Notes under the pieces: generated by a model
Told to the model about the DNA's origin: nothing
What the model saw: the letters and a program-made list of their open reading frames with translations, nothing else
Databases searched by the model: none
Shown: one piece after another, positions 26,653 to 60,494 of the stretch
How positions within the stretch are numbered: the stretch's first letter is position 1
Layout: the number at the start of each line of letters is the position of its first letter
Assembly: GCA_902516285.1 (NCBI GenBank)
Contig: CABXXT010000001.1
Location: 35,655-99,654, forward strand
Length of the DNA: 64,000 bases
Reading direction: 5' to 3'
DNA from: an uncultured SAR86 cluster bacterium
Lineage (GTDB): Bacteria > Pseudomonadota > Gammaproteobacteria > Magnimaribacterales > D2472
Translations under genes and position numbers: made by a program

Positions 26653-26656
26653 TTAT

Positions 26657-38692: not shown

Positions 38693-38818
38693 GTCGAAAA
38701 TTATACTCTTTGTATTGATTTTATATAAAAAAGCCTCTTATTTTATACTGTAAAAAAACTCGAAAAAATAAAATAAGTGCATATAATATTCGAGAAAACA
38801 TTAAAATCCATAAAAATT

Positions 38819-43755: not shown

Positions 43756-43762
43756 ATAAAAT

Positions 43763-45697: not shown

Positions 45698-46956
45698 ATT
45701 GCTTCGTTTCTTGGTTTAAATTCAAGCACAGTGGCATTAATACAATATCTTGGTAACCCATTTGGACCATCATCAAAAACGTGCCCCAAGTGAATATCTG
45801 AAGAAATTGATCGAATCTCTGTTCTACTCATGCCATAACTATTATCTGGAAGTTCATAGACAGAACCCTCAACAGGCTTTGTAAATGAAAGCCATCCAGT
45901 TCTTGAAACAAACCTATCTCTAGTATCAAATAGGGGCATACCGCTTAATTTATCAATAAAAACTCCATCAGGTGTGTTTTTAAAGATCTCGTACTCTTTA
46001 CAAAAACGTGCATCTGTTCCTTTGTTAAATGCAACGTTAAATGCTTCAGAATCTCCCAATTTAAATTTACCTAATAATTCATAAAAGTCTTTAGGATCAA
46101 TGTATCCTTGATGTGCGAAAACTTCTTTTCCATTTTTCAAAAAAATTATTGATGGTGTGGCCCATGTAGGGGAAAAAACTTGAAGACCATGCAGTTGATC
46201 TGATGTTCTGTATGAAATAGGTATGCTGCCTTTATATTCATCAGTTACATTTAATTTTAATTTTTCACAATAAGGACAATAATTTTGTGAATCTAAAACT
46301 AATATTTGTTTTCCTTTCCGCAAAGGCTCATTATTTAACAAAGTTTTATTAGCATCATTAAAAACTATACCTGTTGATAAATCTGGGCAGTAGCCATTAG
46401 GATTTTTCTTTAGATAGTCCTGATGATAATCTTCAGCAAAATAAAAATTATCCAAAGGTTCTATTTTAGTCCTTACTTTTCCATATCCTGCATTTATTAA
46501 AAGCTCTTGATATTCTTCCGTAATTTCTATTGCAAGTTGTCTTTGCTTTTCATTAGAAAAAAGAATGGTGGATCGATATTGGGTTCCTATATCATTACCC
46601 TGCCTATTTAATTGTGTTGGATCGTGTGTTTCAAAAAAATGTTTTAAAATTTTCTCAAGATTTATAGCATTACTGTTATATGTAATTTTAACAACTTCAG
46701 CAAAATTATTATCATTATATTTATTTTTTAACTGAATTATTGATCTGTAATTTGGCTTAATGCCATAACCATTAGCATATCCTGATTGTGCATCTATAAC
46801 ACCATCAAGGGACTCATACCCTTTTTCAGCACCCCAGAAACAACCTGAACCAAGATATATAGTATCAATGTGAGTTGTCTTATTAGCTTCTAAACTTGGA
46901 GATATAAATACAAAAAATAATAAAAGAAAATTCTTGATTTTAACTATTGGTTTCAT
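45694..46956 (-). CDS. msrAB: exported methionine sulfoxide reductase fusion: MsrA - thioredoxin-fold (CPYC) - MsrB
   Basis: 420 aa. Signal peptide (FLLLFFVFISPSLEA), MsrA GSGCFWGAE...YHQDYL, central Trx/Grx-like YCPYCEKLK...ATPSIIF, and C-terminal MsrB (...TGWLSFTKP...HLGHVFDDGP...RYCINATVL). Confidence 0.85.
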   Translation of the reverse strand: MKPIVKIKNFLLLFFVFISPSLEANKTTHIDTIYLGSGCFWGAEKGYESLDGVIDAQSGYANGYGIKPNYRSIIQLKNKYNDNNFAEVVKITYNSNAINLEKILKHFFETHDPTQLNRQGNDIGTQYRSTILFSNEKQRQLAIEITEEYQELLINAGYGKVRTKIEPLDNFYFAEDYHQDYLKKNPNGYCPDLSTGIVFNDANKTLLNNEPLRKGKQILVLDSQNYCPYCEKLKLNVTDEYKGSIPISYRTSDQLHGLQVFSPTWATPSIIFLKNGKEVFAHQGYIDPKDFYELLGKFKLGDSEAFNVAFNKGTDARFCKEYEIFKNTPDGVFIDKLSGMPLFDTRDRFVSRTGWLSFTKPVEGSVYELPDNSYGMSRTEIRSISSDIHLGHVFDDGPNGLPRYCINATVLEFKPRNEAI

Positions 46957-47560
46957 ATTTAAAGCTTTTACTTTTTATAAATGCGGGTCTTGAAAATAAA
47001 TTATCAGACCATTTTTTAATGTTTGGTTTAAATGCTTGCTCTATTCCAAGAGCCTCAGCAAGATTTATGGCATAACTTACACATATATCTGCAAGAGTAA
47101 AGCGATTTGAACACAAGTACTCTTTATTATTTAAGGATGTTTCCAGCAGTTTCAACCTGGATACAAACCATCTGCTGTACCCATCAATTGCAGCATCCGC
47201 TACTCCAGGTTCTTGGAACTTGTACCTCAGTACGACGGTTTGAGGAAAAGTTAAAGTAGCATCAGAGTGATATAACCAATTTAAATAAAGTGGGTAATCA
47301 TCTTCATCTGGCAAAACTTGTAAATCAGATGGGCCATATTTCTCAACAAGGTATTGAGAAATTGCTACTGACTCAGTCATTTTTATATTTCCATCTATCA
47401 TATACGGAACAGTTCCAAGTATATTTACGTCTAAATATTCTTTCATAAAGACTCTTGGAGGAAATGGCATCATTATCAATTCATAATCTAAACCCATTTC
47501 TTCTGCTGTCCAAATAGGTCTCATAGCTCTAGAATTCTCAGTACCGTAAATTTTTATCAT
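46940..47560 (-). CDS. glutathione S-transferase
   Basis: 206 aa. GST N-domain (IKIYG..SRAMRP, TVPYMIDG, TESVAISQYL) and a helical C-domain. Confidence 0.8.
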   Translation of the reverse strand: MIKIYGTENSRAMRPIWTAEEMGLDYELIMMPFPPRVFMKEYLDVNILGTVPYMIDGNIKMTESVAISQYLVEKYGPSDLQVLPDEDDYPLYLNWLYHSDATLTFPQTVVLRYKFQEPGVADAAIDGYSRWFVSRLKLLETSLNNKEYLCSNRFTLADICVSYAINLAEALGIEQAFKPNIKKWSDNLFSRPAFIKSKSFKYETNS

Positions 47561-47599
47561 ATTAAAATTTATTTATTTCCAACATTTTACATCTTATTA

Positions 47600-47629
47600 A
47601 TGGTAATATTAATGATATTATATTACCAT
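47600..47629. promoter_or_regulatory. 10-bp perfect inverted repeat, candidate TetR-family operator of the carboxylase operon
   Basis: ATGGTAATAT-taatgatatt-ATATTACCAT sits centrally in the 93-bp GST/carboxylase divergent region, 24 nt before ATG 47654. A TetR gene lies within the downstream operon. Confidence 0.35.
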
Positions 47630-47653
47630 AAATATCTATATTAAATTTAAATT

Positions 47654-49312
47654 ATGAAAAAAGAGAATATTGCACCAAAAATTAAAACTAATTTAGACAC
47701 TAAATCAGATCAATATCAAAAAAATAAAGATATGATGCTCGAAAAGCTTTCATTTTTAGATGGTCTTTTAGATTTAGCAGAAATAGGTGGTGGCATGCAC
47801 CATCATGAGCGTTTAGCGAAAAGAGGAAAAATGCCAGTAAGGCAAAGAGTCCTAAATGTTCTTGATCAAGATAGTCCATTTCTAGAAATTCAACCTTTCG
47901 CAGCATACGGAACAACCAACTATCATGTGGGAGGTGGTTGTGTATCAGGAGTTGGAATAATTTCAGGTGTAGAGTGCGTAATATTTGCAAATGATCCAAC
48001 TGTAAAAGCAGGTGCAATGACAGTATATGTTGGTGAAAAATGGAAACGAGCAAAAGAGATTGCAAGAGAGAATAAAATCCCATTTATAAGTTTTGTTGAA
48101 TCTGCTGGTGGCGATCTCAGTGTAGGGAATAGTAGTGGTGACTCTCCTCCAATTGCTCCTAGTATTCAGCAAGGTCATTTTGCCTCAACTGGTAGATTTT
48201 TTTATGAAATGACAGAATTATCAAAATTGAGAATACCTGTAATATCAGTAGTTTTTGGTTCATCAACCGCTGGAGGTGCATATCAACCTGGAATGTCAGA
48301 CTACAATATTTTTATAAAAGATCAATCAAAGGCCTTTCTAGCAGGGCCACCACTTGTCAAAATGGCTACTGGAGAAGAATCTGATGATGAAACATTAGGA
48401 GGTGCTCAAATGCATTCAGAGGTTTCTGGTCTTTCAGATTATTTAGCAGAAGATGAGATGGATGCACTAAGAATTTGTAGAGAAGTCGTATCTCATTTGA
48501 ACTGGTCAAAAAAGGGTCCAAAGCCGAAAATAAAGTCTATAGGGCCTGTATATGATAAAGATGAATTACTTGGTATTTTAAGTGAAGATCTTAAATCTGC
48601 TGTAGACATAAAAGAAATAGTAGCAAGGTTTGTTGATGAATCTAGATTTGAAGAATTTAAGCCTCTATATGGATCTTCTTTAGTTTGTGGCTGGGCCTCT
48701 GTTCATGGATATCAAATAGGTATTATTGGAAATAATGGTCCTATTTATCCAGAGTCAGCTGAAAAAGGTGCCAGTTTTATTCAACTTTGTAACAAAAGAA
48801 ATATACCACTTATATTTCTGCATAATGTTACCGGTTTTCTTGTTGGTAAGGATTTTGAAAGGCAAGGTATTATTAAAAAAGGTTCTCAGCTTATAAATGC
48901 TGTATCTAATTCAATGGTCCCTCATATTACATTTATTGTAGGAGCTTCATATGGTGCAGGGACTTATGCCATGTCAGGTAAGGCTTTTAATAACAGATTT
49001 ACTTTTTTGTGGCCTACAGCAAAGATTGCAGTAATGGGGCCTGAGCAAATGGCTGGAGTTATGTCCATTGTAAGAAAAGCCAAAGCTAAAAGAGATGGCA
49101 AGAAATTTGATGAGAAGGCAGATGAGCAACTAAAAGCTATGGTAATTGAATATCTTGAAAATTTATCTCATGGTCTTGTTGCAAGCAGTATGCTTACAGA
49201 TGATGGAATTATTGATCCAAGAGATACTCGAGATGTAATTGGATTTTGCCTATCAATAGTTTGCAATAATGTTATTGAAGGAGCAAAAGAATATGGGGTA
49301 TTCAGATTATGA
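47654..49312 (+). CDS. acyl-CoA carboxylase carboxyltransferase (beta) subunit, methylcrotonyl-/geranyl-CoA carboxylase type (AtuC/LiuB-like)
   Basis: 552 aa. N-terminal GGG...HERLAKRGKMPVRQRV..LLDQDSPFLE pattern and two crotonase-like CT halves typical of MCC/GCC beta subunits. Confidence 0.9.
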   Translation: MKKENIAPKIKTNLDTKSDQYQKNKDMMLEKLSFLDGLLDLAEIGGGMHHHERLAKRGKMPVRQRVLNVLDQDSPFLEIQPFAAYGTTNYHVGGGCVSGVGIISGVECVIFANDPTVKAGAMTVYVGEKWKRAKEIARENKIPFISFVESAGGDLSVGNSSGDSPPIAPSIQQGHFASTGRFFYEMTELSKLRIPVISVVFGSSTAGGAYQPGMSDYNIFIKDQSKAFLAGPPLVKMATGEESDDETLGGAQMHSEVSGLSDYLAEDEMDALRICREVVSHLNWSKKGPKPKIKSIGPVYDKDELLGILSEDLKSAVDIKEIVARFVDESRFEEFKPLYGSSLVCGWASVHGYQIGIIGNNGPIYPESAEKGASFIQLCNKRNIPLIFLHNVTGFLVGKDFERQGIIKKGSQLINAVSNSMVPHITFIVGASYGAGTYAMSGKAFNNRFTFLWPTAKIAVMGPEQMAGVMSIVRKAKAKRDGKKFDEKADEQLKAMVIEYLENLSHGLVASSMLTDDGIIDPRDTRDVIGFCLSIVCNNVIEGAKEYGVFRL

Positions 49313-51231
49313 TCTTTAATTCATTATTAATAGCAAACAGAGGTGAAATTGCCTGTAGAATTATTAAAACTGCAAAAGAAATGGGTATAAGATCTATTGC
49401 TGTATATGTTGATGCAGACAGAGATGCCCTTTTTGTTAATCAGGCTGATGAATCAATTAGATTAGAGGATGGAGGATATCTTGATGGAAATCAGATAATA
49501 ATGGCTGCAAAGATGTCTGGCGCACAAGCCATTCATCCAGGTTATGGATTTTTATCAGAAAATGCTTCTTTTGCGAGGAAGGTAAAGAAAGAAAAAATAA
49601 TATGGGTTGGTCCATCTCCAAATGTTATTTCTGTAATGGGAGATAAATTAAAAGCAAAAGAGTTAGCAATTCAAGCAGATGTCCCTACTCTTCCTATGAC
49701 ATCTAAGCCAAATGAAGCTAAACAAATAGGCTATCCACTTCTCATTAAGGCTGCTGCTGGTGGTGGTGGAAAAGGAATGAGAATTGTTAATAAGGAAAGG
49801 GATCTTAAGGAGTCCATTCAAAGCGCTCAAAGAGAAGCTAAAACTGGATTTAATGATGAGAGAATTTTTATCGAGAGATACGTAGAAAAATCAAGACACG
49901 TAGAAATTCAAATATTAGGAGACTCATTAGGAAATATAATTCATTTAGGAGAAAGAGAATGCTCAATTCAACGGAGACATCAAAAAATAATAGAGGAATC
50001 TCCATCTCCAAGAATTTCTGAAGAAGTAAGAGATAAAATGGGTAAAGCAGCAGTAAAGCTTGCTAAAAAAATTAAATATGAATCAGCTGGCACTGTAGAA
50101 TTTCTGTTTGATGATCAGACAGAGGAATTTTGGTTTTTAGAAGTCAACACAAGGCTTCAAGTTGAACATCCTGTTACTGAGGAAGTTACAGGGATAGACC
50201 TTGTTAATGAACAACTTAAGATAGCTAGAGGTGAACCTCTTGAGTATTCTCAAGAAGACGTTGAGTGGCATGGTTCATCAATTGAAGCAAGATTATATGC
50301 AGAGGATCCTGATAATGATTTCCTTCCCGAGATTGGAACTCTCATTGCATTTGAAAAAAATGTCTCTGCTGAAGCTAGATGGGATACTGGAGTTAAAACT
50401 GGTACAGTCGTTGGGACTGATTTTGATCCAATGCTTGCAAAAGTAATTTCATATGCTCCAAATAGAACCGATGCAGCAAGTAAATTAGCTAAAGCGCTCC
50501 AATCTGCTCATATTGGAGGCGTGAAAACCAACAGAGACTTTCTAATTAATTGTCTCCAGTCGAAAGAGTTCATTGATGGAGATACTACATCAGACTTTAT
50601 TGAAAAAGTGAATCCAAGTAGAAAGCTTGAAATTAATGAGTCACAAATAGAACATGTAACAGCTATTGCAGCTATGTGGATTCAAGAACAAAATAGAAAC
50701 AATTCTAATGTTGCTAACTTTATGCCATCTGGCTGGACTAATGGCAGGCTTCCAAATCAAAAGATTGCTTATGAATTTGATAATAAAGAATTTATTGTTG
50801 AATATAAAAAAGATAGAGACGGGAAATTTATTTTTGCTTCAAGCAAAGATGCATTTATATATGCTTGCGATAAAGTTGGAATAGATATGATTTTTGAAGG
50901 TAAAAGAAATTATTCCCGAGTTACAGCTACAGAAGATAAGATTTTAGTTCATATGCCTTTTGGTGATGTAATGCTCGGGTTGAAACCAAGATTTAAAATC
51001 CCTGGTATAGAAACTACTATTGGTGGTCTTACTGCACCAATGCCAGGAAAAGTTATTGATCTTAAAGTAAAAAAAGGAAAAAATGTCAAAGCTGGAGATA
51101 CCTTAGTTATTTTAGAAGCAATGAAAATGGAACATTCTATAAAAGCATCTGAAGACGGCAAAGTAACGGAATTGTATATTTCAATTAATGATCAGGTAGA
51201 AAATGGCGCTTTATTAATGGTCGTTAAGTAA
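49309..51231 (+). CDS. acyl-CoA carboxylase biotin-carboxylase + BCCP (alpha) subunit (AtuF/LiuD-like)
   Basis: 640 aa. ATP-grasp biotin carboxylase (GGGGKGMRIV, ECSIQRRHQK) and a C-terminal biotinyl domain with the EAMKME motif. Confidence 0.92.
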   Translation: MIFNSLLIANRGEIACRIIKTAKEMGIRSIAVYVDADRDALFVNQADESIRLEDGGYLDGNQIIMAAKMSGAQAIHPGYGFLSENASFARKVKKEKIIWVGPSPNVISVMGDKLKAKELAIQADVPTLPMTSKPNEAKQIGYPLLIKAAAGGGGKGMRIVNKERDLKESIQSAQREAKTGFNDERIFIERYVEKSRHVEIQILGDSLGNIIHLGERECSIQRRHQKIIEESPSPRISEEVRDKMGKAAVKLAKKIKYESAGTVEFLFDDQTEEFWFLEVNTRLQVEHPVTEEVTGIDLVNEQLKIARGEPLEYSQEDVEWHGSSIEARLYAEDPDNDFLPEIGTLIAFEKNVSAEARWDTGVKTGTVVGTDFDPMLAKVISYAPNRTDAASKLAKALQSAHIGGVKTNRDFLINCLQSKEFIDGDTTSDFIEKVNPSRKLEINESQIEHVTAIAAMWIQEQNRNNSNVANFMPSGWTNGRLPNQKIAYEFDNKEFIVEYKKDRDGKFIFASSKDAFIYACDKVGIDMIFEGKRNYSRVTATEDKILVHMPFGDVMLGLKPRFKIPGIETTIGGLTAPMPGKVIDLKVKKGKNVKAGDTLVILEAMKMEHSIKASEDGKVTELYISINDQVENGALLMVVK

Positions 51232-51238
51232 TTTTTGA

Positions 51239-51859
51239 ATGCATAATATCGAATATAAAATAAATACTTTCGAAAATAAAAATCCAAAATTATTTACAAA
51301 AAGGCATCATGAAATTGCAGAAGCTCTTGAAAGGCTTTTAGAAAAGGGTGTGCCAGAACTTACAATGTCTCAGATTGCAAAGAAACTAAAAATTTCTTTA
51401 AGAACTTTATACGAAATAGCGCCAAGTAGAGACAAGCTAATATTAATGACAATGGATAATATCCTTAAAAAATTGGGCAAATTTGCTATGGATTCCGTAT
51501 CTGATATTGATTCACCAATAAAAAAATTAGAAAAATATCTTTTCATAGTTAATCAAGCCGTTGGTCCAAAATTTGATACATTTTTAAAAGATATGGAAAA
51601 AATTAATGGATCAAAGAAAATGGCAGACTATCATGAAAATTTCATTAAAAATATCATTAAAAGGCTACTTCTAGAAGCTATCCAAAAGAATGAAATAAAA
51701 AAAATTGATGTTAAAGCTTTTTCTATTCTTTTAGGAGGTATTGGAAGGGAATTTTTTAAAGAGAAGAATAAGAATTCAATTGACTTAACACCAGAAAAAT
51801 CTGCTAATTCAATAACAAGCATTATTTTAAATGGTATCAAACTGCAAACTTATGAATAA
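51239..51859 (+). CDS. TetR-family transcriptional regulator
   Basis: 206 aa. N-terminal HTH (LTMSQIAKKLKISLRTLYEIAPSRDKL). Embedded co-directionally in the operon. Confidence 0.85.
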   Translation: MHNIEYKINTFENKNPKLFTKRHHEIAEALERLLEKGVPELTMSQIAKKLKISLRTLYEIAPSRDKLILMTMDNILKKLGKFAMDSVSDIDSPIKKLEKYLFIVNQAVGPKFDTFLKDMEKINGSKKMADYHENFIKNIIKRLLLEAIQKNEIKKIDVKAFSILLGGIGREFFKEKNKNSIDLTPEKSANSITSIILNGIKLQTYE

Positions 51860-53624
51860 AGAATTTATAAAAATTGCAAACTGTAGTGGGTTTTATGGTG
51901 ATAAGTTATCGGCCGCAAAAGATCTTGTTGAGGGTGGTCCTATTGACGTTTTAACTGGAGATTACCTCGCAGAATTGACAATGGCGATTCTTTTTAGTCA
52001 AAAAATGCAAAGAGGTGAGGATAAAGGATATGTTGGTACCTTCTTAAAACAAATTAATGACATAGCAAAGTCCTGTAAAGAAAAAAATATTAAAATTGTA
52101 AGTAATGCTGGTGGCTTAAATCCAAAATCAATGGCTGATGAAATTGAAAAAATTTTAAGGGATCAGTCGGTAGATATGAAGGTAGCTTATATTGATGGTG
52201 ATGATTTAATGTCAAGAATCCCTGATCTGACTGAATCTGGTGAAACATTTAAAAATATTGATAAGAATGTGAAACTTGATGATTGTGGTCATTCGCCATT
52301 GACGGCTAATGCTTATCTTGGGGCATGGGGTATAAAAGAAGCATTAGATAATGGCGCTGATATTGTTGTATGCCCAAGGGTCACTGACGCTGCAGTAGTG
52401 ATTGGCCCAGCTGCATGGAAATTTAATTGGGCCAGAGACAATTACGATGCATTGGCAGGTGCTTTAGCTGCTGGTCATATTATTGAATGTGGGTGTCAAG
52501 CCACAGGTGGAAATTATGCTTTCTTCAAAGAGGTTAAAAGCTTTGATAATGTTGGCTATCCAATTACTGAAATTTATGAAGATGGAAGTTTTTACATCAC
52601 AAAACATCAAAATACCGGAGGTCTTGTATCTAAAGGGACAGTTACTGCTCAGCTTTTGTACGAAATAAGTTCTCCTGCATATGTAAATCCAGATGTAATA
52701 GCTCATTTCGATACTTTAAAAATTGAAGAAATTGAAGAGGATAAAGTATTTGTGTCAGGCTGCAGAGGTAGCTCTCCACCAAAAAAACACAAAGTCTGTA
52801 TTAATCTTGCAAGTGGTTTCAGAAATGGAATGGAAGTTATTCTGACAGGTTTAGATATTGAAGATAAGGCTAAAGTATTTACTGATGCATTGTTTAATTC
52901 AGTAGGAGGAAAAGATCATTTTGATGAAGTTTCAATTCAATTACATAGAACAGACAAAGAAAATCCATTAACCAATGAAGAAGCAATGGCTTCACTTTTA
53001 ATTTCAGTAAAATCTAAAGATCAAAATTTAGTTGGAAGACTGTTCAGTGCAAAAATAATTGAATTGGCTCTAGCTAACATCCCTGGTTTCTTTGCACAGG
53101 GTGGTGTTAAATCTAGTGGTCCAGTTGTCCTTTATTGGCCTGCTCTTGTAGATAGTAAGTATATTAAAGAAAAGGTGCATATTGATGGGAAAGAGATAGA
53201 GGTTTTACCAACAAGCCAATTAGAATTAGATGAAATTTATTATCAGAAAGACCCAGTTAAAGTTAAAAAAATTAAGATAGAAGACGAAAGAGATATATAT
53301 TTTGGTGATATATATGGAACAAGGTCTGGTGATAAAGGTGGTTGTGCAAATCTTGGAATTTGGGCGAAAAACTCTAATGCATTTGGGTTTCTTCATAATT
53401 TTTTAACAGTAGAAAAACTTAAAGAACTTCTACCAGACTTGAAAGACTTCAAAATCGAAAGGTATGAACTATCAAACATAAATTCATTAAATTTTTATAT
53501 ACACGACATACTGCAAGATGGTGTATCCTCTAATGACAGAAAAGATGCTCAGGCAAAATCTTTAGGTGAGTATCTAAGGGCAAAAAAAATTAAAGTTCCA
53601 CAAAGTATTATTGGAGAATTGTAA
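51852..53624 (+). CDS. atuA: AtuA-family (DUF1446) acyclic-terpene-utilisation protein
   Basis: Start placed at MNKEFIKIANCSGFYGD (ATG 51852, 8-nt overlap with the TetR stop). About 590 aa. N-terminal CSGFYGDK...GGPIDVLTGDYLAELTM pattern matches DUF1446/AtuA as I recall it. Confidence 0.75.
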   Translation: MNKEFIKIANCSGFYGDKLSAAKDLVEGGPIDVLTGDYLAELTMAILFSQKMQRGEDKGYVGTFLKQINDIAKSCKEKNIKIVSNAGGLNPKSMADEIEKILRDQSVDMKVAYIDGDDLMSRIPDLTESGETFKNIDKNVKLDDCGHSPLTANAYLGAWGIKEALDNGADIVVCPRVTDAAVVIGPAAWKFNWARDNYDALAGALAAGHIIECGCQATGGNYAFFKEVKSFDNVGYPITEIYEDGSFYITKHQNTGGLVSKGTVTAQLLYEISSPAYVNPDVIAHFDTLKIEEIEEDKVFVSGCRGSSPPKKHKVCINLASGFRNGMEVILTGLDIEDKAKVFTDALFNSVGGKDHFDEVSIQLHRTDKENPLTNEEAMASLLISVKSKDQNLVGRLFSAKIIELALANIPGFFAQGGVKSSGPVVLYWPALVDSKYIKEKVHIDGKEIEVLPTSQLELDEIYYQKDPVKVKKIKIEDERDIYFGDIYGTRSGDKGGCANLGIWAKNSNAFGFLHNFLTVEKLKELLPDLKDFKIERYELSNINSLNFYIHDILQDGVSSNDRKDAQAKSLGEYLRAKKIKVPQSIIGEL

Positions 53625-53627
53625 GAG

Positions 53628-54413
53628 ATGACTAAATTATCTTTAGAAGGTTTAAAATTTTCAGCAACTGAACTAGAAATTAAAAATAATATTATGAGAA
53701 TTACACTCAATAGGCCTGAGAAAAAAAATGCTTTGAACAACGTTATGATGAACGAAATTAATTATGCATTAGCATATGCAAAACAGGAAAAAACTATAAG
53801 AGTCGTGGTATTTGCAGCTAAGGGAGATATCTTTTGTGCTGGTGCAGATTTATCTAGAACTAAATCTGAATCAAACGTACCAAAGCTAGACAATGCTGAT
53901 GATATTAGTCTATCCATAAGACATTTATACAAACCAGTCATTTGTAAAATTCAAGGTCCTGTTCTTGCGGGTGCACTTTTGATTGTTTCAAATTCTACCC
54001 ATGCAATTGCTGTAAATGAAGCAACATTTTCAGCTCCCGAGATTCATAGAGGATTATGGCCCTTTATGGTAATGGCAGGTTTATTTAGAATAATGCCAAA
54101 AAGAGCAGGATTAGATTTTATAATGAGAGGTAAGCCAATTGATTCAAAAAAAGCTCAGGAATGGGGTTTGATAAATGAATCTGTAAAAAAGGAAGAACTT
54201 AACCAAAAAGTTGATAAACTTGCCGATGAACTTGCAAGTTTGGCACCTGAAACAATGCAATTTGGACTTGAAGCATATGAAAAACAGGATTCAAAAAGCT
54301 TTGATGAAGCACTTCCATATTTAAAAGAGCAAATAACTAAATGCTTTGAAGGTAAAAATGCAAAAGAAGGAATAACTGCATTTCTTGAAAAAAGAAAGCC
54401 AAATTGGGATTAG
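53628..54413 (+). CDS. enoyl-CoA hydratase/isomerase (crotonase; AtuE/LiuC-like)
   Basis: 261 aa. Crotonase oxyanion-hole motifs (FCAGADL; ...PEIHRGLWP...). Confidence 0.88.
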   Translation: MTKLSLEGLKFSATELEIKNNIMRITLNRPEKKNALNNVMMNEINYALAYAKQEKTIRVVVFAAKGDIFCAGADLSRTKSESNVPKLDNADDISLSIRHLYKPVICKIQGPVLAGALLIVSNSTHAIAVNEATFSAPEIHRGLWPFMVMAGLFRIMPKRAGLDFIMRGKPIDSKKAQEWGLINESVKKEELNQKVDKLADELASLAPETMQFGLEAYEKQDSKSFDEALPYLKEQITKCFEGKNAKEGITAFLEKRKPNWD

Positions 54414-54425
54414 ATTGGAGATTAT

Positions 54426-55652
54426 ATGGATTTAAATTTTGGAACAGAATACAAAGATTTTACGAATGAAGTAAAAGATTTTTGTAAAAAATATTCAGGA
54501 ATTCATTTCTCTGATTCATCTAAAGTACCTTTATCTGGATCATATAAGTCTGGTGAAATGCAAATGAAAAGATCGGAATGGCAAAAGATCTTAATAGAAA
54601 AAGGCTATTTTGCAAGATCAATTCCAAAAGAATATGGTGGTTATGGTGGCGAAAGTGACATTATAAAAAGTAGAATAATTGCCGAAGAGTTTGCGAAAGC
54701 AAAAATTCCTCCACCAATGGGTGGTCAAGGTATAGATATGCTTGTACCTACTCTCCTTGAACTAGGAACAGAAAAACAAAAAGAAAAATATGTTAAACCC
54801 ACCCTGCTTGGTGAAATTATATGGTGTCAAGGATATTCAGAACCAAATGCTGGCAGTGATCTTGCAAGTCTTCAGACTAAAGGAGAATTAATTAAAGGGA
54901 ATTGGATAATTAATGGTCAAAAAATTTGGACGAGTACTGCTCAATACTCGCAAATGATGTTTTGCTTAGTAAGAACCGAACCTGAAGCAACAAAACATGC
55001 TGGTATAAGTTATTTGTTAATTCCAATGGATACTCCTGGAATTGAAATTAGGCCATTAGTAGACATGACTCTTAATGCTGGATTCAATGAAGTATTTTTT
55101 ACAGATGTAACAATCCCAGAGGAAAACATTGTTGGAAAAAGAGGAGAAGGATGGTCGGTTGCAAATGCAACATTAAGCCATGAGAGAGGCTCGCTGTCTG
55201 ATCCTAATGCAATGATGAATAGATTAAATTCACTTATAGAAAGAATGAAGCAAGAAACTATAAATGGTGAAAAAGTAATTGATAATCCAATTTACAGGGA
55301 CAAACTAATGAAAATTCAAGGTAAGGTTATTGCATTTCAATCTAATTCACTTCGCGTTTTGTCTGCGAAACTTAATAAAAATCAAGATGTAAAAATTGCT
55401 GGAATGATTCAAAAGCTTGTTGGCACAGAACTAAGACACGAGCTTGAGGGTTTTGCAATAGATATTATGGGTGAATTGGGAACACTATATGAGAATAGTC
55501 CTAATTTGAGGGATGGTGGCTCATGGCAAGTTGCATATATGTATTTTCTTGGATTGATAATTGGTGGTGGAACCAGCCAAATACAAAAAAATATTATTTC
55601 TGAAAGAGGTCTTGGTATGCCAAAAGAGCCTAAAGTTCAACAAGGATCATAG
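54426..55652 (+). CDS. acyl-CoA dehydrogenase family protein (pair 2, putative catalytic alpha subunit)
   Basis: 408 aa. Paralogous to 38819..40012 (WCQGYSEPNAGSDLASL, NGQKIWTS). Glu in ...TLSHERGS... at the IVD/LCAD base position, and Gly at the MCAD position (...LIIGGGTSQIQ...). Confidence 0.85.
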   Translation: MDLNFGTEYKDFTNEVKDFCKKYSGIHFSDSSKVPLSGSYKSGEMQMKRSEWQKILIEKGYFARSIPKEYGGYGGESDIIKSRIIAEEFAKAKIPPPMGGQGIDMLVPTLLELGTEKQKEKYVKPTLLGEIIWCQGYSEPNAGSDLASLQTKGELIKGNWIINGQKIWTSTAQYSQMMFCLVRTEPEATKHAGISYLLIPMDTPGIEIRPLVDMTLNAGFNEVFFTDVTIPEENIVGKRGEGWSVANATLSHERGSLSDPNAMMNRLNSLIERMKQETINGEKVIDNPIYRDKLMKIQGKVIAFQSNSLRVLSAKLNKNQDVKIAGMIQKLVGTELRHELEGFAIDIMGELGTLYENSPNLRDGGSWQVAYMYFLGLIIGGGTSQIQKNIISERGLGMPKEPKVQQGS

Positions 55653-55653
55653 T

Positions 55654-56742
55654 ATGTACTTTGGTTTATCAGATGATCAGATTTTTTTTCAAGATAATGT
55701 AAAAAAGTTTCTTGAAGATAATGCTCCTTTGGATGTTATAAAAAAAATTGCTAGTAATGAAGATAAATTAAGCAAAGATGATTTACACAGAGGCATAATA
55801 AATTTAGGAATAAATAATTTGTTAGTTCCTGAAATAAATGGTGGCCTTGGGTTAAATTTGCTATTTGCGTCTGCGGTTGCACAAAGTTTGGGAGAAGGAA
55901 TAGCTACTGTACCATTTATTGGTTCTTATGTTATGGCGCCAATTTCACTCTGTTATGGTGCAAGTGACGAACAAAAAAAAGTTTATCTAGAATTAATGGC
56001 GGAAAATAAAATTAATTTTTGTGTTGGCTTCTCAGAATTCTTTGGATCAAGAGATGATTCAGAAATCACGATATCAGACAACTTAATAAATGGTAAAACT
56101 ACATTTGTAATTGATAATGACTATGCCACACATGCAATGATATCTGATAAAAATGGTCAAATTGGAGTTGTTTCTTTAGACTCATCTGGGATAAAAATTA
56201 TTGACTTATTAACAGTTGATAAGACTAGAACATTCAAAGAAATGCATTTTAAAGACACAGAAATAGATATTCTTTATGAGAGCACAAATTCAAAGGAAGC
56301 TATTCATAAAGCAATGAATGCTGGACGAATAGTCGCTGCAGCAGATTCACTGGGTGCATCGCAGGCGATGATTGATAAAGCAGTGGCGTATTCAAAAGAA
56401 AGAAAACAATTTAATAGGGTTATTGGTTCTTTTCAGGCAGTAAAACACATGTGTGCAGAAATAGTTTCTGAATTAGAGCCATGTTATTCATTAATTTGGC
56501 ATGCAGCTCATTCTTTTGATACTAATGAAAAAAGTCAGTCATTAATGGCTTGTCATGCAAAATCTCATACTTCAGATATTTCAAAGAAAGTATCTAAAAT
56601 AGCAACTGAAGTTCATGGAGGAATGGGATTTACTGATTTATTGGGCTTACACTATTGGTTCAAGAGAATTGGTTTAAATAGGCATTTGTTAGGATCTCCT
56701 GAAATTTTAAGAGAAGAAGCTGCAAAATCTCAAGGCTTATAA
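55654..56742 (+). CDS. acyl-CoA dehydrogenase family protein (pair 2, putative non-catalytic beta subunit)
   Basis: Start placed at ATG 55654 (MYFGLSDDQIFF...), 1 nt after the upstream stop. ACAD core ERKQFNRVIGSFQAVKH. No Glu at either base position by eye (...MNAGRIVAA...; ...HLLGSPEIL...). Confidence 0.8.
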   Translation: MYFGLSDDQIFFQDNVKKFLEDNAPLDVIKKIASNEDKLSKDDLHRGIINLGINNLLVPEINGGLGLNLLFASAVAQSLGEGIATVPFIGSYVMAPISLCYGASDEQKKVYLELMAENKINFCVGFSEFFGSRDDSEITISDNLINGKTTFVIDNDYATHAMISDKNGQIGVVSLDSSGIKIIDLLTVDKTRTFKEMHFKDTEIDILYESTNSKEAIHKAMNAGRIVAAADSLGASQAMIDKAVAYSKERKQFNRVIGSFQAVKHMCAEIVSELEPCYSLIWHAAHSFDTNEKSQSLMACHAKSHTSDISKKVSKIATEVHGGMGFTDLLGLHYWFKRIGLNRHLLGSPEILREEAAKSQGL

Positions 56743-56744
56743 CT

Positions 56745-58790
56745 TTGATAGTAAAAGCTAAAATTTTAATACTTTTTTTATTATGTACTTTTGTAATTGC
56801 AGAGGATTACGAGAACATTGAAGTTAGCGAAACAAAAAAGAAATTAAGCAATGAAATTTTTAAAAAGCTTGAAAAAGAACATTACATAAAAACAATTAAT
56901 AAGGAGGATTTTAATGAAAAATATGTAAAAGCAATATTTGATAGGCTGGATAAAAATAAAAATTATTTTACAAAAAATGAAGTTAGTGAATTTATTAAAG
57001 AATCCAAAAAGGATAATGAAAATATTTTTGATATTTTCCTTGCCTACGAAATCATAAATCTTTACTTTAAAAAGTTAATTGAATTTTCTGATCTTCAAAT
57101 TGCTATGATTGAACAAGATGAGTTTGATTTTAAAACTGAAGAATATTTAGACATATTTTATGAGGACAATGAATGGTTATATGACGTTTCTGAAATACAG
57201 AATCTTTGGAGGTTAGAAACTAAGAATGATCTTTTAATTGCAAAAATATCGGACTCTTCAAGCCCAGATTATAAAAAAGACCTAGTAAAAAGATATAAAA
57301 ATAGGATCAGGAGAATTACTCAACAAAAGGAAGAAGATATTTTCACATTAGCAATAAATATCTTAACAAATCAATTTGATCCTCATTCATCTTATTTATC
57401 ACCAAGATCTGCTGAGGATTTTGATGTAAATATGAGCTTAAAACTAAGTGGGATTGGAGCTCTATTAGGTGTTGAGGATGACTATACAAAAATAATAAAT
57501 TTAGTTCCTGGAGGTCCAGCTGAGAAGTCTGGAAAAATTAATCCTGAAGACAGGATATCAAAAATAAAACAAAAAAATTCTGATAAGTTTATAGATGTTG
57601 TTGGATGGAGAATTGACGAAGTAGTTGATTTAATAAGAGGAGAGGCAGGGACTGAAGTAGAGATCGAATTTATATCATTCAAAGAAGATCTAGATTCAAG
57701 AAAAATAGTAACTCTTAAGAGAGAGGAAATTAAGTTAGAAGATCGCGCAGCTAAGTCGGAAGTTATAGATTTTAATGAAAGTAAAATAGGTATTATTGAC
57801 CTACCCTCTTTTTACATCGATTTTGATGAGTATCAAAAAAGAAATAAAGATTATAGAAGTAGTAGTAAAGATATTAAAAACATACTAAATGATTTTAATG
57901 ATCTTGAAGTAGATGCAGTAATTCTTGACTTGAGGAATAATGGAGGCGGAGCATTAATTGAAGCTAATAAAATAATTGGTCTTTTTGTTTCCTCTGGTCC
58001 TACTGTGCAGGTAAAACAAAGTAAAGGCTATATCCAACCATATGGTGATACACGAGCAGTTCAAATATGGAAAAAACCAGTTTTAGTATTAGTAAACCGT
58101 TATTCTGCTTCAGCATCTGAAATTGTTGCAGGTGCAATTCAAGATTACAGAAGAGGAATTGTTGTAGGACAAAGAACTTTTGGAAAAGGAACTGTTCAGA
58201 GCCTAGAAAATCTTTCTCAGGGTCAACTAAAAATTACTGAATCAAAATATTACAGAATAAATGGAATGAGTACTCAAAATAGAGGAATTATTCCAGATAT
58301 AGAGTTACCAGTAACTTGGGATATTGATTCTGTTGGTGAAAGCTCATATCCAACTGCCCTGGAGTGGGATCAAATAAGGCCATATAGGCATAGAAAATTT
58401 GAAATGAGTCCAGATGTTATTGAAAATGTCCTTAGTCAACATGAAATAAGATTAATTGATGAACCAAACTTAAACTATTTAAAACAAGTAAGAAAAAGAT
58501 ATGATCTTAATAAAAATAAAAAGGTGGTAAGCCTTGATATTGAGGAAAGAAAAATTCAAAAAGATTTAAGAAAAAGTTGGCTATTGAATATAGAAAATCA
58601 AAGACGAAGTGCAATTGGTATGAGCGTTTTTGCAAGTTATGAGGAGATGGAAGATTATAATGACAGAGATACTGACTATAATAATAATTCGATAGATCTT
58701 GAAAGTGACTATCAGTTAATTGAATCAACTAAAATTATTGATGACTTTTTAAAATTTTCCAATAAGAAATTAATTTCGGTTGTTGAATGA
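56745..58790 (+). CDS. prc: tail-specific (C-terminal processing) protease Prc, S41 family
   Basis: 681 aa. TTG start giving a signal peptide, a PDZ region, and S41 Ser/Lys contexts (NRYSASASEI...TFGKGTVQ). Confidence 0.88.
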   Translation: MIVKAKILILFLLCTFVIAEDYENIEVSETKKKLSNEIFKKLEKEHYIKTINKEDFNEKYVKAIFDRLDKNKNYFTKNEVSEFIKESKKDNENIFDIFLAYEIINLYFKKLIEFSDLQIAMIEQDEFDFKTEEYLDIFYEDNEWLYDVSEIQNLWRLETKNDLLIAKISDSSSPDYKKDLVKRYKNRIRRITQQKEEDIFTLAINILTNQFDPHSSYLSPRSAEDFDVNMSLKLSGIGALLGVEDDYTKIINLVPGGPAEKSGKINPEDRISKIKQKNSDKFIDVVGWRIDEVVDLIRGEAGTEVEIEFISFKEDLDSRKIVTLKREEIKLEDRAAKSEVIDFNESKIGIIDLPSFYIDFDEYQKRNKDYRSSSKDIKNILNDFNDLEVDAVILDLRNNGGGALIEANKIIGLFVSSGPTVQVKQSKGYIQPYGDTRAVQIWKKPVLVLVNRYSASASEIVAGAIQDYRRGIVVGQRTFGKGTVQSLENLSQGQLKITESKYYRINGMSTQNRGIIPDIELPVTWDIDSVGESSYPTALEWDQIRPYRHRKFEMSPDVIENVLSQHEIRLIDEPNLNYLKQVRKRYDLNKNKKVVSLDIEERKIQKDLRKSWLLNIENQRRSAIGMSVFASYEEMEDYNDRDTDYNNNSIDLESDYQLIESTKIIDDFLKFSNKKLISVVE

Positions 58791-59599
58791 AAATAGTATC
58801 TTTTAATATAAATAGTATTCGTGCAAGGCCACATCAAATAGAGCATTTAAGGGATACTATTGATCCAGATATAATTGGTCTTCAAGAAACAAAAGTTAAT
58901 GATCCTGATTTCCCAATAGAGATGATTAATGAAATCGGATATCACGCGGAATATTGGGGACAAAAAGGTCACTATGGTGTGGCGATTCTAAGTAAGGTAA
59001 AGCCATTAAATACTGTAAAGGGGTTTATTGATGATAGTGAGGAGGACCAAAAAAGATTTATTCAATCGACCCATAAGTTAGGATCTCAGGAAATAGTAAT
59101 AATGAATGGATACTTTCCGCAAGGTGAAAATATCAATCATGAAACAAAGTTTCCTAAAAAAGTTAAGTTTTATAATGATCTTGAACAACATATTTCTGAA
59201 CTAAAAAAACATTCGAAAAATCTAATTGTAATGGGTGACTTTAATGTATCTCCGGAGGATATTGATATTGGAATTGGCGAGCATAATGCAAAAAGATGGC
59301 TAAGAGATGGTAAAACTTCATTTCAGCCTCAAGAAAGAGAAATGTGGAACAAAATTAAAGATTTGGGTTTTGTAGATACATGGAGAGTTATAAATCAAAA
59401 CGAATCCTCAATTTATTCTTGGTTTGACTATAGATCAAGAATGTTTGACCAAGATCCTAAAAGAGGCCTCAGAATAGATCATATTTTGCTTTCAGAAAAT
59501 CTTAAAAGCACTATTAATAAAGTTGGCATAGACTATCAGGCTAGAGCAATGGAAAAACCATCTGATCATTGTCCTGTATGGCTGGAGATTAATGAGTGA
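58787..59599 (+). CDS. xthA: exodeoxyribonuclease III (XthA)
   Basis: 270 aa. ExoIII/AP-endonuclease motifs (SFNINSIR, LQETK, GDFNV, SDHCPV). Confidence 0.93.
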   Translation: MKIVSFNINSIRARPHQIEHLRDTIDPDIIGLQETKVNDPDFPIEMINEIGYHAEYWGQKGHYGVAILSKVKPLNTVKGFIDDSEEDQKRFIQSTHKLGSQEIVIMNGYFPQGENINHETKFPKKVKFYNDLEQHISELKKHSKNLIVMGDFNVSPEDIDIGIGEHNAKRWLRDGKTSFQPQEREMWNKIKDLGFVDTWRVINQNESSIYSWFDYRSRMFDQDPKRGLRIDHILLSENLKSTINKVGIDYQARAMEKPSDHCPVWLEINE

Positions 59600-60029
59600 A
59601 ATAGAGTTCAGGACTCCAAATTCAAAAAATGAATTTTTAGAATATGACTTATTTCGTTGGAGGCTTTTAAGAAAACCTATAGGTAAAACAATTGAATCTT
59701 TAAAAGATGATTTTGAAGATTTTAGTTTTCATTTAATAGGGATTAAAGATAATCAAATTATTGCTTGTGGCAGACTTCACTTTAATACTAAAACTGAGGC
59801 TCAGATAAGGTATATGGCTGTTGAAAAAAATTTTCAAAGAAATGGGATTGGAAGAAAGATTCTAAAAATTTTAGAAAAAGAAGCAAAAAATAAAAATGCT
59901 AGAAAAATAGTCCTTAATGCCAGAGATCATGCAATTAATTTTTATAAATCAACTAAGTACAAAGTTGTAGGCAAATATAATGGTTCAGATACTGGAATTC
60001 CACATACAACAATGGAAAAAAAAATTTAG
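59592..60029 (+). CDS. GNAT-family N-acetyltransferase
   Basis: 145 aa. Acetyl-CoA motif A (VEKNFQRNGIGRKIL). Confidence 0.8.
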   Translation: MSEIEFRTPNSKNEFLEYDLFRWRLLRKPIGKTIESLKDDFEDFSFHLIGIKDNQIIACGRLHFNTKTEAQIRYMAVEKNFQRNGIGRKILKILEKEAKNKNARKIVLNARDHAINFYKSTKYKVVGKYNGSDTGIPHTTMEKKI

Positions 60030-60494
60030 CTACCTTCTTTTTTCGAAAAAGCTTTTAAGTAAATCAGTGCTCTCCTTTTGCATCAATCCATACTCATATT
60101 CAACTCTATGATTGAGATGTCTTGCATCTAAAAAGTTGTCAATTGAAATAATGCATCCTGTTTTTGGTTCTAAAGTTGAAAAGATAACGGACTTCAATCT
60201 TGAATCAACTATAGCTTTTGCACACATATGACAGGGTTCAAGAGTTACATACATCTGACAGTTTACTAATCGATAATTTTGAATATTTTTTGAAGCATCT
60301 TTAATAGCATTGATTTCAGCATGTGAAGTAACGTCATTGTTGATAATTACATTGTTACGTCCTCTTCCAATAATTTTTCCATTATTAACAATAATTGCAC
60401 CAACAGGGACTTCATTATAGTTATAGGATTCTTGAGCTAATTCAAAAGCCTCGCTCATAAAAGCTTTATCTTGTTGAGAAAACATTTTAATCAA
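60030..60494 (-). CDS. tadA: tRNA adenosine(34) deaminase TadA
   Basis: 154 aa. CDA zinc motifs HAEINAI and PCHMCAKAI. Confidence 0.92.
   Translation of the reverse strand: MIKMFSQQDKAFMSEAFELAQESYNYNEVPVGAIIVNNGKIIGRGRNNVIINNDVTSHAEINAIKDASKNIQNYRLVNCQMYVTLEPCHMCAKAIVDSRLKSVIFSTLEPKTGCIISIDNFLDARHLNHRVEYEYGLMQKESTDLLKSFFEKRR

Follow-up and report, generated by a model that had tools for sequence, protein, structure and literature searches.

The window analysed here, a stretch of 64,000 nucleotides from an uncultured SAR86 cluster bacterium (GenBank assembly GCA_902516285.1, contig CABXXT010000001.1, positions 35,655 to 99,654; 32% G+C), carries two adjacent genes coding for proteins of the acyl-CoA dehydrogenase (ACAD) fold, here called alpha and beta (Table 1). 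An initial annotation, made from the sequence alone, had placed these genes one nucleotide apart and read them as a heteromeric, alpha2beta2-type ACAD tied to an Atu-like gene cluster. The spacing is confirmed by the open reading frames (ORFs) and by the sequence of the junction (TCA TAG T ATG). The ORF listing puts the start of ACAD-2 at an upstream TTG (position 55561); as beta homologues are 361-365 aa long throughout, each of them starting from the ATG, the ATG at 55654 is taken to be the real start. Pfam recognizes the ACAD fold in both proteins, the middle (flavin-ring) domain of beta going without a match.

Table 1. Features of the alpha/beta pair and of the genes around it. Conservation counts refer to 68 SAR86 and two Sphingomonadales sequences for alpha, and to 71 SAR86 and two Sphingomonadales sequences for beta. 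MCAD and LCAD, medium- and long-chain acyl-CoA dehydrogenase; IVD, isovaleryl-CoA dehydrogenase; MCC and GCC, methylcrotonyl- and geranyl-CoA carboxylase; FAD, flavin adenine dinucleotide; SD, Shine-Dalgarno.
Feature	Position	Strand	Remarks
ACAD alpha (ACAD-1; predicted large, catalytic subunit)	54426..55652	+	408 aa; all three Pfam ACAD domains matched
ACAD beta (ACAD-2; predicted small, non-catalytic subunit)	55654..56742	+	362 aa; Pfam N- and C-terminal ACAD domains only
Alpha/beta coupling junction	55642..55656	+	SD-like AAGGA (55642-55646) inside the 3' end of alpha; TAG 55650-55652; 1 nt; beta ATG 55654-55656
Alpha Pro95-Pro96-Pro97, 'Pro-loop' at the start of helix E	54708..54716	+	Pro95 and Pro97 align with ChsE4 Pro89 and Pro91
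Alpha Glu253 codon, predicted catalytic base at the helix-G, IVD-type position	55182..55184	+	aligns with the Glu of ChsE4 'NHER' and with the Tcur3483 Glu; invariant 70/70
Alpha Gly380-Gly381-Gly382, in place of Tyr-Glu-Gly of MCAD 'YEGT'	55563..55571	+	MAFFT and HMMER; all three invariant 70/70
Beta Gly224 codon, where IVD-, LCAD- and ChsE4-type enzymes carry the catalytic Glu	56323..56325	+	invariant Gly 73/73
Beta Glu249-Arg-Lys-Gln-Phe253, equivalent to MCAD 'ERKTF' (Arg281 region, touching the ADP part of the neighbour's FAD)	56398..56412	+	Arg250, Gln252 and Phe253 invariant 73/73
Beta Glu319-Val-His-Gly-Gly-Met-Gly-Phe326, equivalent to MCAD 'QILGGNGF'	56608..56631	+	all eight residues invariant 73/73
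Beta Leu346 codon, MCAD Glu376 position	56689..56691	+	HMMER against 4l1f_A and 1ukw_A places 'LLGS' on 'YEGT'; invariant Leu 73/73
Carboxyltransferase (CT), MCC/GCC beta family	47654..49312	+	human MCC beta 474 bits, P. aeruginosa MCC beta 471, GCC beta (5ikl_B) 445
Biotin carboxylase (BC) fused to a biotin-carrier domain, MCC/GCC alpha type	49309..51231	+	Pfam Biotin_carb_N, CPSase_L_D2, Biotin_carb_C, Biotin_lipoyl
TetR-family regulator	51239..51859	+	PF00440 22.8 bits, just under the 24-bit cut-off; syntenic in SAR86
AtuA-family protein	51831..53624	+	PF07287 524.7 bits, and PF23544; no solved relative
Enoyl-CoA hydratase (ECH), 12 nt 5' of alpha	53628..54413	+	Pfam ECH_1; directly before alpha in 57 SAR86 loci
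Second alpha-type ACAD	38777-40012	+	411 aa; ChsE4 and Tcur3483 top PDB matches, 1.7e-45
Second beta-type ACAD	40019-41158	+	379 aa; Tcur3481 2e-33
Nitronate monooxygenase (NMO/FabK-like) family gene	42601-43755	+	between both ACAD pairs

The two genes are consistently found together. All of the 80 genome loci recovered at 73-98% identity belong to SAR86 or to metagenome-assembled genomes of unclassified Gammaproteobacteria, which places the host in SAR86 (order Magnimaribacterales), and beta lies directly 3' of alpha in every SAR86 locus with enough downstream sequence (77/77); the pair is conserved across the SAR86 order and is very abundant in marine metagenomes. The wider family was defined as 80 metagenome loci (marine, soil and compost) in which beta is 51-98% identical to a Rhodobiaceae beta. 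Alpha is located directly 5' of beta in 69 of these, nine being too short to judge; the two informative loci where it is absent from that place (L102 and L103) could have a split arrangement or an orphan beta. The same adjacency occurs on Sphingomonadales plasmids. The distance from stop to start is between -1 and +3 nt in 71 of 72 complete alpha/beta pairs, and an SD-like motif is present 4-12 nt before the beta start, within the 3' end of alpha, at 67 of 71 family junctions. Judging by these junctions, alpha and beta appear to be translationally coupled, and such coupling would set a fixed proportion of the two proteins. A scan for promoters and terminators over positions 46800-60200 gave counts no higher than those in shuffled sequences, and no operon boundary can therefore be drawn.

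The solved proteins most similar to alpha are ChsE4 (4x28_A, 1.7e-46) and Tcur3483 (6wy8_B, 3.1e-43), the best homomeric ACAD in the PDB matching at 1.5e-27; its best NCBIfam match is TIGR03204 (pimC_large), over the full length (6.4e-66, 222.8 bits; cut-off 623.85). HMMER aligns the alpha motif LSHERGSL with LNHERVAL of ChsE4 and LNHERIGL of Tcur3483, and MAFFT aligns the same helix-G motif with LDLER of IVD-type ACADs. The ChsE4 counterpart of alpha Glu253 is residue 247 in the HMMER alignment numbering, which is reportedly the catalytic base of that enzyme (Yang et al. 2015). The register of the alignment is right, since ChsE4 Pro89 and Pro91 fall exactly where they are numbered in the literature (PMC11153573). 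At the position of MCAD Glu376 alpha has a glycine (IIGGGTSQIQ aligned to IYEGTSQIQ). The human MCAD sequence used as a reference agrees with its PDB match over residues 41-193. Both a Glu at the helix-G base position of the first protein and a Gly in place of Glu376 had been proposed by eye in the initial annotation, and both are confirmed here.

Beta, by the same kind of alignment, has no Glu at either base position. Its MNAGRIV segment is aligned by HMMER to the helix-G segment LDGGRIG of a solved ACAD, which puts Gly224 at the Glu position, and HLLGSPE is aligned to the YEGT of two solved ACADs, so that Leu346 stands where MCAD has Glu376. The lack of both glutamates and the retention of an RKQF-x5-FQ core had likewise been read from the sequence by eye; proper alignment gives the second protein a catalytic Glu at neither site, and the core is present as ERKQF...SFQ.

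The residues that hold FAD in other ACADs are divided between the two proteins. Alpha retains the flavin-ring side, with invariant YSEPxAGSD, W-T-S and GGGT motifs, and carries M-K-x-E-T (no Arg) for the ERKTF of MCAD and D-I-M-G-E-L-G for its QILGGNG. In beta R250-K-Q-F, F260-Q261 and EVHGGMGF are invariant, FSEFFGSRD is found for the VTEPGAGSD of MCAD and F-V-I for its W-I-T, and the beta-barrel has two deletions. The FAD half-sites thus look complementary, alpha providing the ring side and beta the ADP-ribose side, with the reciprocal site defective. This pattern matches what has been described for heteromeric ACADs, in which the isoalloxazine is bound by alpha, the subunit with the Glu and the substrate site, beta touches the ADP-ribose, and one FAD is bound per alpha-beta dimer (PMC11153573; PMC8399759), and it therefore supports a heteromeric reading of the SAR86 pair.

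Natural fusions of the two types of protein also exist. In P0332 (775 aa) residues 1-360 are beta-like (27% identity, 4e-41) and residues 381-775 alpha-like (35%, 2e-72), and P0356 (788 aa) resembles it. Both are metagenomic proteins in which the N-terminal half has no base and the alpha-like C-terminal half bears the helix-G Glu and GGG.

Alpha and beta are thus probably two subunits of one heteromeric ACAD of the ChsE4-ChsE5 or PimC-PimD type, presumably alpha2beta2. We put the probability of this reading at roughly 0.78, because of the solved relatives of alpha, the single base, the complementary half-sites, the coupling and adjacency of the genes, and the fusions; on each of these sequence-level tests the alpha2beta2-type heteromer of the initial annotation is upheld. 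In such an enzyme alpha would bind the flavin ring, form the acyl-CoA pocket and supply the base (Glu253, on helix G), and beta, base-less and with a degenerate flavin-ring site, would clamp the ADP-ribose end of the alpha-bound FAD via C-terminal residues. As alpha is without the reciprocal ADP-ribose residues, only the alpha-side site of each dimer could be filled, and a tetramer would have two FAD and two active sites. This assembly, FAD stoichiometry and activity are inferred.

Several results weigh against this reading. No NCBIfam equivalog cut-off is reached by either protein, the matches of beta being IpdE2 (NF050027, 88.2 bits; cut-off 450) and pimD_small (TIGR03203, 75.8 bits, 3.4e-21; cut-off 652.7). 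The PDB matches of beta include Tcur3481 (6wy8_A, 1.2e-14) and ChsE5 (4x28_D, 4e-9), but ordinary homomeric ACADs are the best, Tcur3481 ranking 15th and ChsE5 41st, and a search with the N-terminal and middle part alone ranks MCAD first. The comparison with the FadE26-29 type that the initial annotation had suggested therefore gives a clear answer for alpha, with ChsE4 and Tcur3483 on top, and a divided one for beta, which matches the expected partners with generic ACADs above them. An AlphaFold2 model of the beta monomer (70-sequence alignment) is poor, with a mean predicted local distance difference test (pLDDT) score of 60.8 and an N-terminal domain below 50; Foldseek matches it to generic ACADs in the PDB at TM 0.6-0.7, which speaks for the ACAD fold only. 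The half-sites are read against the MCAD contacts with FAD (Arg281, Gln349, Gly353, Trp166, Thr168 and Ser142) reported by Kim et al. 1993.

The generic matches of beta would agree with another interpretation, in which the genes encode independent homotetrameric paralogues, the second of which, ACAD-2, would rely on an unconventional base such as Glu350 in GSPE. Beta is an intact and conserved protein of the ACAD fold whose best PDB matches are homomeric, and position 350, four residues past the Glu376 equivalent, is acidic in the sequences compared (70 Glu and 3 Asp of 73). We nevertheless consider independent paralogues very improbable: both known base positions are lost in beta, to an invariant Gly224 and Leu346, and so are the flavin-ring motifs of the middle domain along with its Pfam match; alpha does not have the Arg and the Gln-x-x-x-Gly contacts that a homodimer partner would have to offer, and so should hold FAD poorly alone; and strict adjacency, coupling and natural fusions would not be expected of separate enzymes.

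The evolution of beta bears on a further interpretation, that ACAD-2 is a decaying, functionless duplicate and that ACAD-1 works alone. Mean identity is 0.64 for beta versus 0.79 for alpha, beta being the more diverged in 99.5% of genome pairs; this faster evolution and the loss of catalytic residues would both be expected of a gene in decay. The beta ORF, however, is intact (361-365 aa) in 71 of the 73 sequences, with 91 invariant columns that include the whole ERKQF and EVHGGMGF motifs, it is kept in a streamlined genome (about 1.2 Mb), throughout the SAR86 order and also in Alphaproteobacteria, and alpha is without the residues needed to complete its FAD site with a second alpha. Decay seems the least probable of the interpretations considered here, if by little, and beta appears to be under selection. 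Its divergence tracks that of alpha (r = 0.89), and evolution that is faster than that of alpha, yet follows it, fits a scaffolding subunit of a heteromer.

As to the substrate, the initial annotation had argued for a bulkier or unusual branched one, and two residues of alpha lend some support to the idea. Pro95 is invariant (70/70; positions 96 and 97 are variable) in a Pro-loop two residues longer than that of ChsE4. The enlarged pocket of LCAD, ACAD11 and steroid ACADs has been ascribed to a proline of helix E (ChsE4 Pro89, LCAD Pro132) and to unwinding of this helix (PMC11153573). Gly380 is aligned to the first Gly of FGGG in Tcur3483, the residue altered in PDB 6wy9 (G363A variant) and a 'key glycine' in the wording of the title of Stirling et al. 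2020 (cited in PMC8399759). Both ChsE4-type pocket residues, the helix-E proline and the key glycine, are thus present and invariant in alpha. What they suggest is a likeness of pocket type to the steroid side-chain ACADs rather than steroid specificity, and they would speak for a substrate that is bulky or branched, without telling which.

The genes upstream of the pair make up an Atu-type set: an AtuA-family protein, a two-subunit carboxylase of the MCC/GCC type, a hydratase and a TetR regulator. All five genes are on the strand of alpha and beta, with intergenic gaps of -29 to +12 nt. The scores of the carboxyltransferase (Table 1) fail to separate MCC from GCC, and the NCBIfam matches of the hydratase (PRK08139, 182 bits; EchA19, 163; gamma-carboxygeranoyl-CoA hydratase, 120) are each below cut-off. 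There is no gene for a short-chain dehydrogenase/reductase (SDR; AtuB/AtuG dehydrogenase), for an AMP-ligase (AtuH) or for a homomeric AtuD in 47654-56742, lyase and ligase being absent from this seven-gene block of SAR86. Without the dehydrogenase and the ligase, the block may fairly be called Atu-like, but not Atu. The TetR-like and AtuA ORFs as listed overlap by 29 nt (51831-51859); the AtuA start may lie downstream of 51831, as tblastn alignments with other SAR86 loci start a few codons further in. The regulator is co-directional and in the middle of the block, an unusual place for a TetR repressor.

The initial annotation had linked the heteromeric ACAD to this cluster. In favour of the link, the order CT-BC-TetR-AtuA-ECH-alpha-beta-Prc-Xth is kept in the 57 L001-L060 loci whose sequence reaches upstream, and alpha identity across the loci with ECH-alpha-beta directly after AtuA goes from 98% down to 76%. 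The cluster from CT to beta is without any other ACAD. One ACAD of the homomeric type is present in each of the Atu-like clusters of Rhodococcus DK17, Acinetobacter and Mycolicibacterium, so the alpha/beta pair seems to fill the ACAD slot expected in such a cluster. It does so without being an AtuD orthologue, as alpha scores 99 bits against Acinetobacter AtuD and 459 against the Sphingobium alpha. In the module, the ACAD would convert a bulky beta-branched acyl-CoA to its 2-enoyl-CoA, the branch of which would then be carboxylated by the carboxylase. A plasmid of the roseobacter Sagittula sp. MA-2 with tandem ACADs was considered as a second Atu-linked alpha/beta pair and rejected, since each of the two proteins is a complete ACAD of the IVD type, with LDLER and all FAD motifs; AtuA may thus have tandem ACADs next to it that are not of the alpha/beta kind. 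On this plasmid (p6, L084, 5641-14400) AtuA-BC-BCCP-CT (BCCP, biotin carboxyl carrier protein) are divergent from the two ACADs, an SDR, a hydratase and two PaaI thioesterases.

Against the link stands, first, a second alpha/beta pair 15 kb upstream in the window, which means that the heteromeric type is not peculiar to the Atu-like cluster. In 20 of the 77 SAR86 loci (L061-L080, alpha identity 73-76%) the pair is found between a beta-lactamase-like gene and genes for Amidohydro_2 and malate synthase G, no Atu gene being closer to it than 10 kb. Among the 80 loci of the wider family AtuA is beside the pair in one, itself SAR86-like, the recurrent partners being a P450, a ferredoxin, an NMO-family protein, a thiolase-like protein, DUF35, an acyl-CoA synthetase and an FAD oxidoreductase. 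Lastly, the close same-strand packing of this compact genome runs on into the unrelated genes Prc and Xth. Alpha and beta would accordingly seem to be an independent two-gene module as far as gene order goes, and the proposed tie to the Atu-like genes is conserved in 57 SAR86 loci without holding in the others or in the wider family.

A rival reading is that the pair is heteromeric but functionally unrelated to the Atu-like genes, which it would adjoin by genome compaction, and that it acts as a stand-alone module on, for example, sterol side chains, a role proposed for the fadE26 and fadE27 homologues of SAR86, or other bulky acyl-CoAs. The relocated pairs, the near absence of AtuA and carboxylase from the wider family, its different partners and the equally tight packing of Prc and Xth would all be explained, and the Atu route from geraniol has no need of an ACAD, the substrate of AtuD being citronellyl-CoA. 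The retention of ECH-alpha-beta after AtuA over such a range of alpha identity is not expected under this reading; neither is the fact that all other Atu-like clusters inspected have an ACAD at a comparable place, when that of SAR86 has no other, nor the chemical coherence of the succession ACAD, MCC-type carboxylase, hydratase (PMC10049677; PMC6678751). A stand-alone role is possible, though we would give it somewhat less than an even chance. As the conserved order and the filled ACAD slot have to be set against the relocated pairs, the contexts of the wider family and the tight packing, we hold the odds to be about even that in this lineage the heteromeric ACAD serves the adjacent Atu-like module of MCC/GCC-type carboxylase, AtuA and ECH.

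Should it do so, a more specific role may be suggested by analogy. The C24-alkyl side chains of sterols such as sitosterol and campesterol are removed in Actinobacteria in four steps, in which an ACAD desaturates C24-C25, an MCC-like enzyme carboxylates C28, and hydration is followed by aldol cleavage (PMC6678751; PMC10049677), a succession that shares its logic with the Atu and Liu pathways. CT-BC-TetR-AtuA-ECH-alpha-beta could, in most SAR86, be one 'de-branching' module for bulky beta-alkyl-branched acyl-CoAs abundant in the surface ocean, although we think this rather unlikely. The steroid-type ACAD would give the 2-enoyl-CoA, the carboxylase would carboxylate the carbon of the branch, and removal of the branch would be prepared by the hydratase, AtuA taking part in some step. 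The C24-alkyl side chains of algal sterols, or phytol-derived isoprenoid acids, could be its substrates. The AtuA cluster of Mycolicibacterium also has a P450-ferredoxin, a thiolase with an OB-fold protein and paired MaoC hydratases, and the Rhodococcus Atu-like cluster adjoins SCP2, ketosteroid-isomerase-like and Mce genes; as support for a de-branching module these neighbours are suggestive but weak.

In the second pair of the window, the alpha-type protein carries LLQHER and, in addition, has an unusual second Glu, in LEGGS, where MCAD has Glu376; the beta-type protein has Ala and Gly at the base positions and keeps QRKQFG and MHGGIG. An acyltransferase, RraA and the NMO-family gene are located 3' of this pair. 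Genes of the NMO family recur near alpha/beta pairs, in the Sphingomonadales plasmid cluster (L081, 7193-8332) and directly 3' of beta in L113 (at about 8245), where the protein is 55% identical to that of the window. The family includes the steroid-ring enzyme IpdC, and the NMO-family protein might be a functional partner of the alpha/beta ACADs. In L001-L060 the stretch from NMO to CT (42601-47560 in the window) is variable among SAR86, some having a GH3 beta-glucosidase as the window does, and the NMO gene is about 2 kb 5' of CT in other SAR86 genomes or inverted (L051, L055-L057 and L059). The window also has methylcitrate-cycle genes (25192-27778 on the minus strand and 9304-11886 on the plus strand) for PrpD-family, citrate-synthase-family (PrpC-like) and AcnB-type aconitase proteins. 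Propionyl-CoA released when branched chains or sterol side chains are oxidized would be cleared by them; the genes are not beside the ACAD pairs, and the rest of their block is housekeeping (trp, leu, accD and purF).

SAR86 accounts for several per cent of the bacteria of the surface ocean, and beta-oxidation genes dominate its genome, their substrates having largely been guessed (PMC11582366). Reading alpha and beta as one two-subunit enzyme halves the apparent count of independent ACADs, points to a bulky or branched substrate, and means that both genes must be co-expressed in experiments. If this enzyme serves the carboxylase and AtuA genes, a major ocean heterotroph would have a route for stripping alkyl branches from algal sterols or isoprenoids, and its link to the Atu-like genes would provide a handle on AtuA function. 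A true de-branching module would merge two pathways so far treated apart and give AtuA a testable context; if there is no link, the pair is one more member of a described enzyme family.

Among known systems, ChsE4-ChsE5 of Mycobacterium tuberculosis (FadE26-FadE27, 4X28) includes the best solved relative of alpha (ChsE4, 162 bits, residues 58-400). It shares with the SAR86 pair the adjacency of the genes, a Glu in an xHER helix-G motif, GGG for YEG, the Pro89-type proline and a base-less beta. The two differ in that the similarity is distant (ChsE5 matches beta at 4e-9), that alpha has two extra Pro-loop residues and a longer N-terminal segment than ChsE4, that the SAR86 pair comes from a marine gammaproteobacterium whose genome measures about 1.2 Mb, and that none of the steroid catabolic set cyp125, fadD19, chsH and ltp is found within the 64-kb window. 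In Tcur3481-Tcur3483 of Thermomonospora curvata (6WY8/6WY9), the key glycine, G363 of Tcur3483, corresponds to alpha Gly380, and Tcur3481 is colinear with beta (residues 3-336 of beta on 3-334; 362 versus 364 aa), though the similarity of the small subunits is low; its substrates are bile-acid side chains (PMC8399759), to which nothing points in SAR86. PimC-PimD, a pimeloyl-CoA dehydrogenase, provides the best curated profile for alpha and a full-length match for beta, with the same order of large then small subunit, but the scores are far under the equivalog cut-offs and no pimA, pimB, pimE or pimF is beside the SAR86 pair.

The closest pair in cultured organisms is that of the plasmids pF2 of Sphingobium yanoikuyae and pSfKp5.2 of Sphingopyxis fribergensis (alpha 56% and beta 46% identical), which has the same residue pattern and the genes of which overlap by 1 nt. 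Unlike the SAR86 pair it has no Atu genes around it: on pF2 (L081, 3309-17330) and in L083 the order is P450, ferredoxin, hydrolase and PaaI, then an FCD regulator, NMO, Coq4, a thiolase-like protein (annotated 'transporter'), DUF35, alpha, beta, acyl-CoA synthetase, FAD oxidoreductase and hydrolase. Catabolic clusters of this type are carried on conjugative or mobilisable plasmids, are found in further metagenome loci (L129, L141, L143, L144, L146-L148, L151, L155, L157 and L163) and are common in marine metagenomes.

AtuD, the citronellyl-CoA dehydrogenase of Pseudomonas and Acinetobacter, resembles the SAR86 pair in occupying the ACAD slot of a cluster with AtuA and a carboxylase and in having a helix-G base (ER in the cluster ACADs of Acinetobacter and Rhodococcus), but it is the product of a single gene and its FAD motifs are complete on both sides. 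Fused ACADs such as CasC of Rhodococcus jostii, P0332 and P0356 have, like the pair, a base-less beta-like half, at the N-terminus, and a Glu-bearing alpha-like half, at the C-terminus (for the order in CasC, PMC8399759), in one polypeptide rather than in two stop/start-coupled genes.

The established type comprises, in addition to these, ChsE1-ChsE2, IpdE1-IpdE2 and the Scd pairs (PMC11153573; PMC8399759). Homologues of fadE26 and fadE27 were reported in 2024 with the first SAR86 isolate, as broadly distributed in three of four SAR86 families, and were read as sterol side-chain degradation (PMC11582366). The text of that report contains neither 'terpen' nor 'carboxylase', and the adjacency of the pair to AtuA and the carboxylase appears not to be discussed in it. 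The alpha/beta pair of SAR86 is a further member of the established heteromeric ACAD type, partly anticipated by that report.

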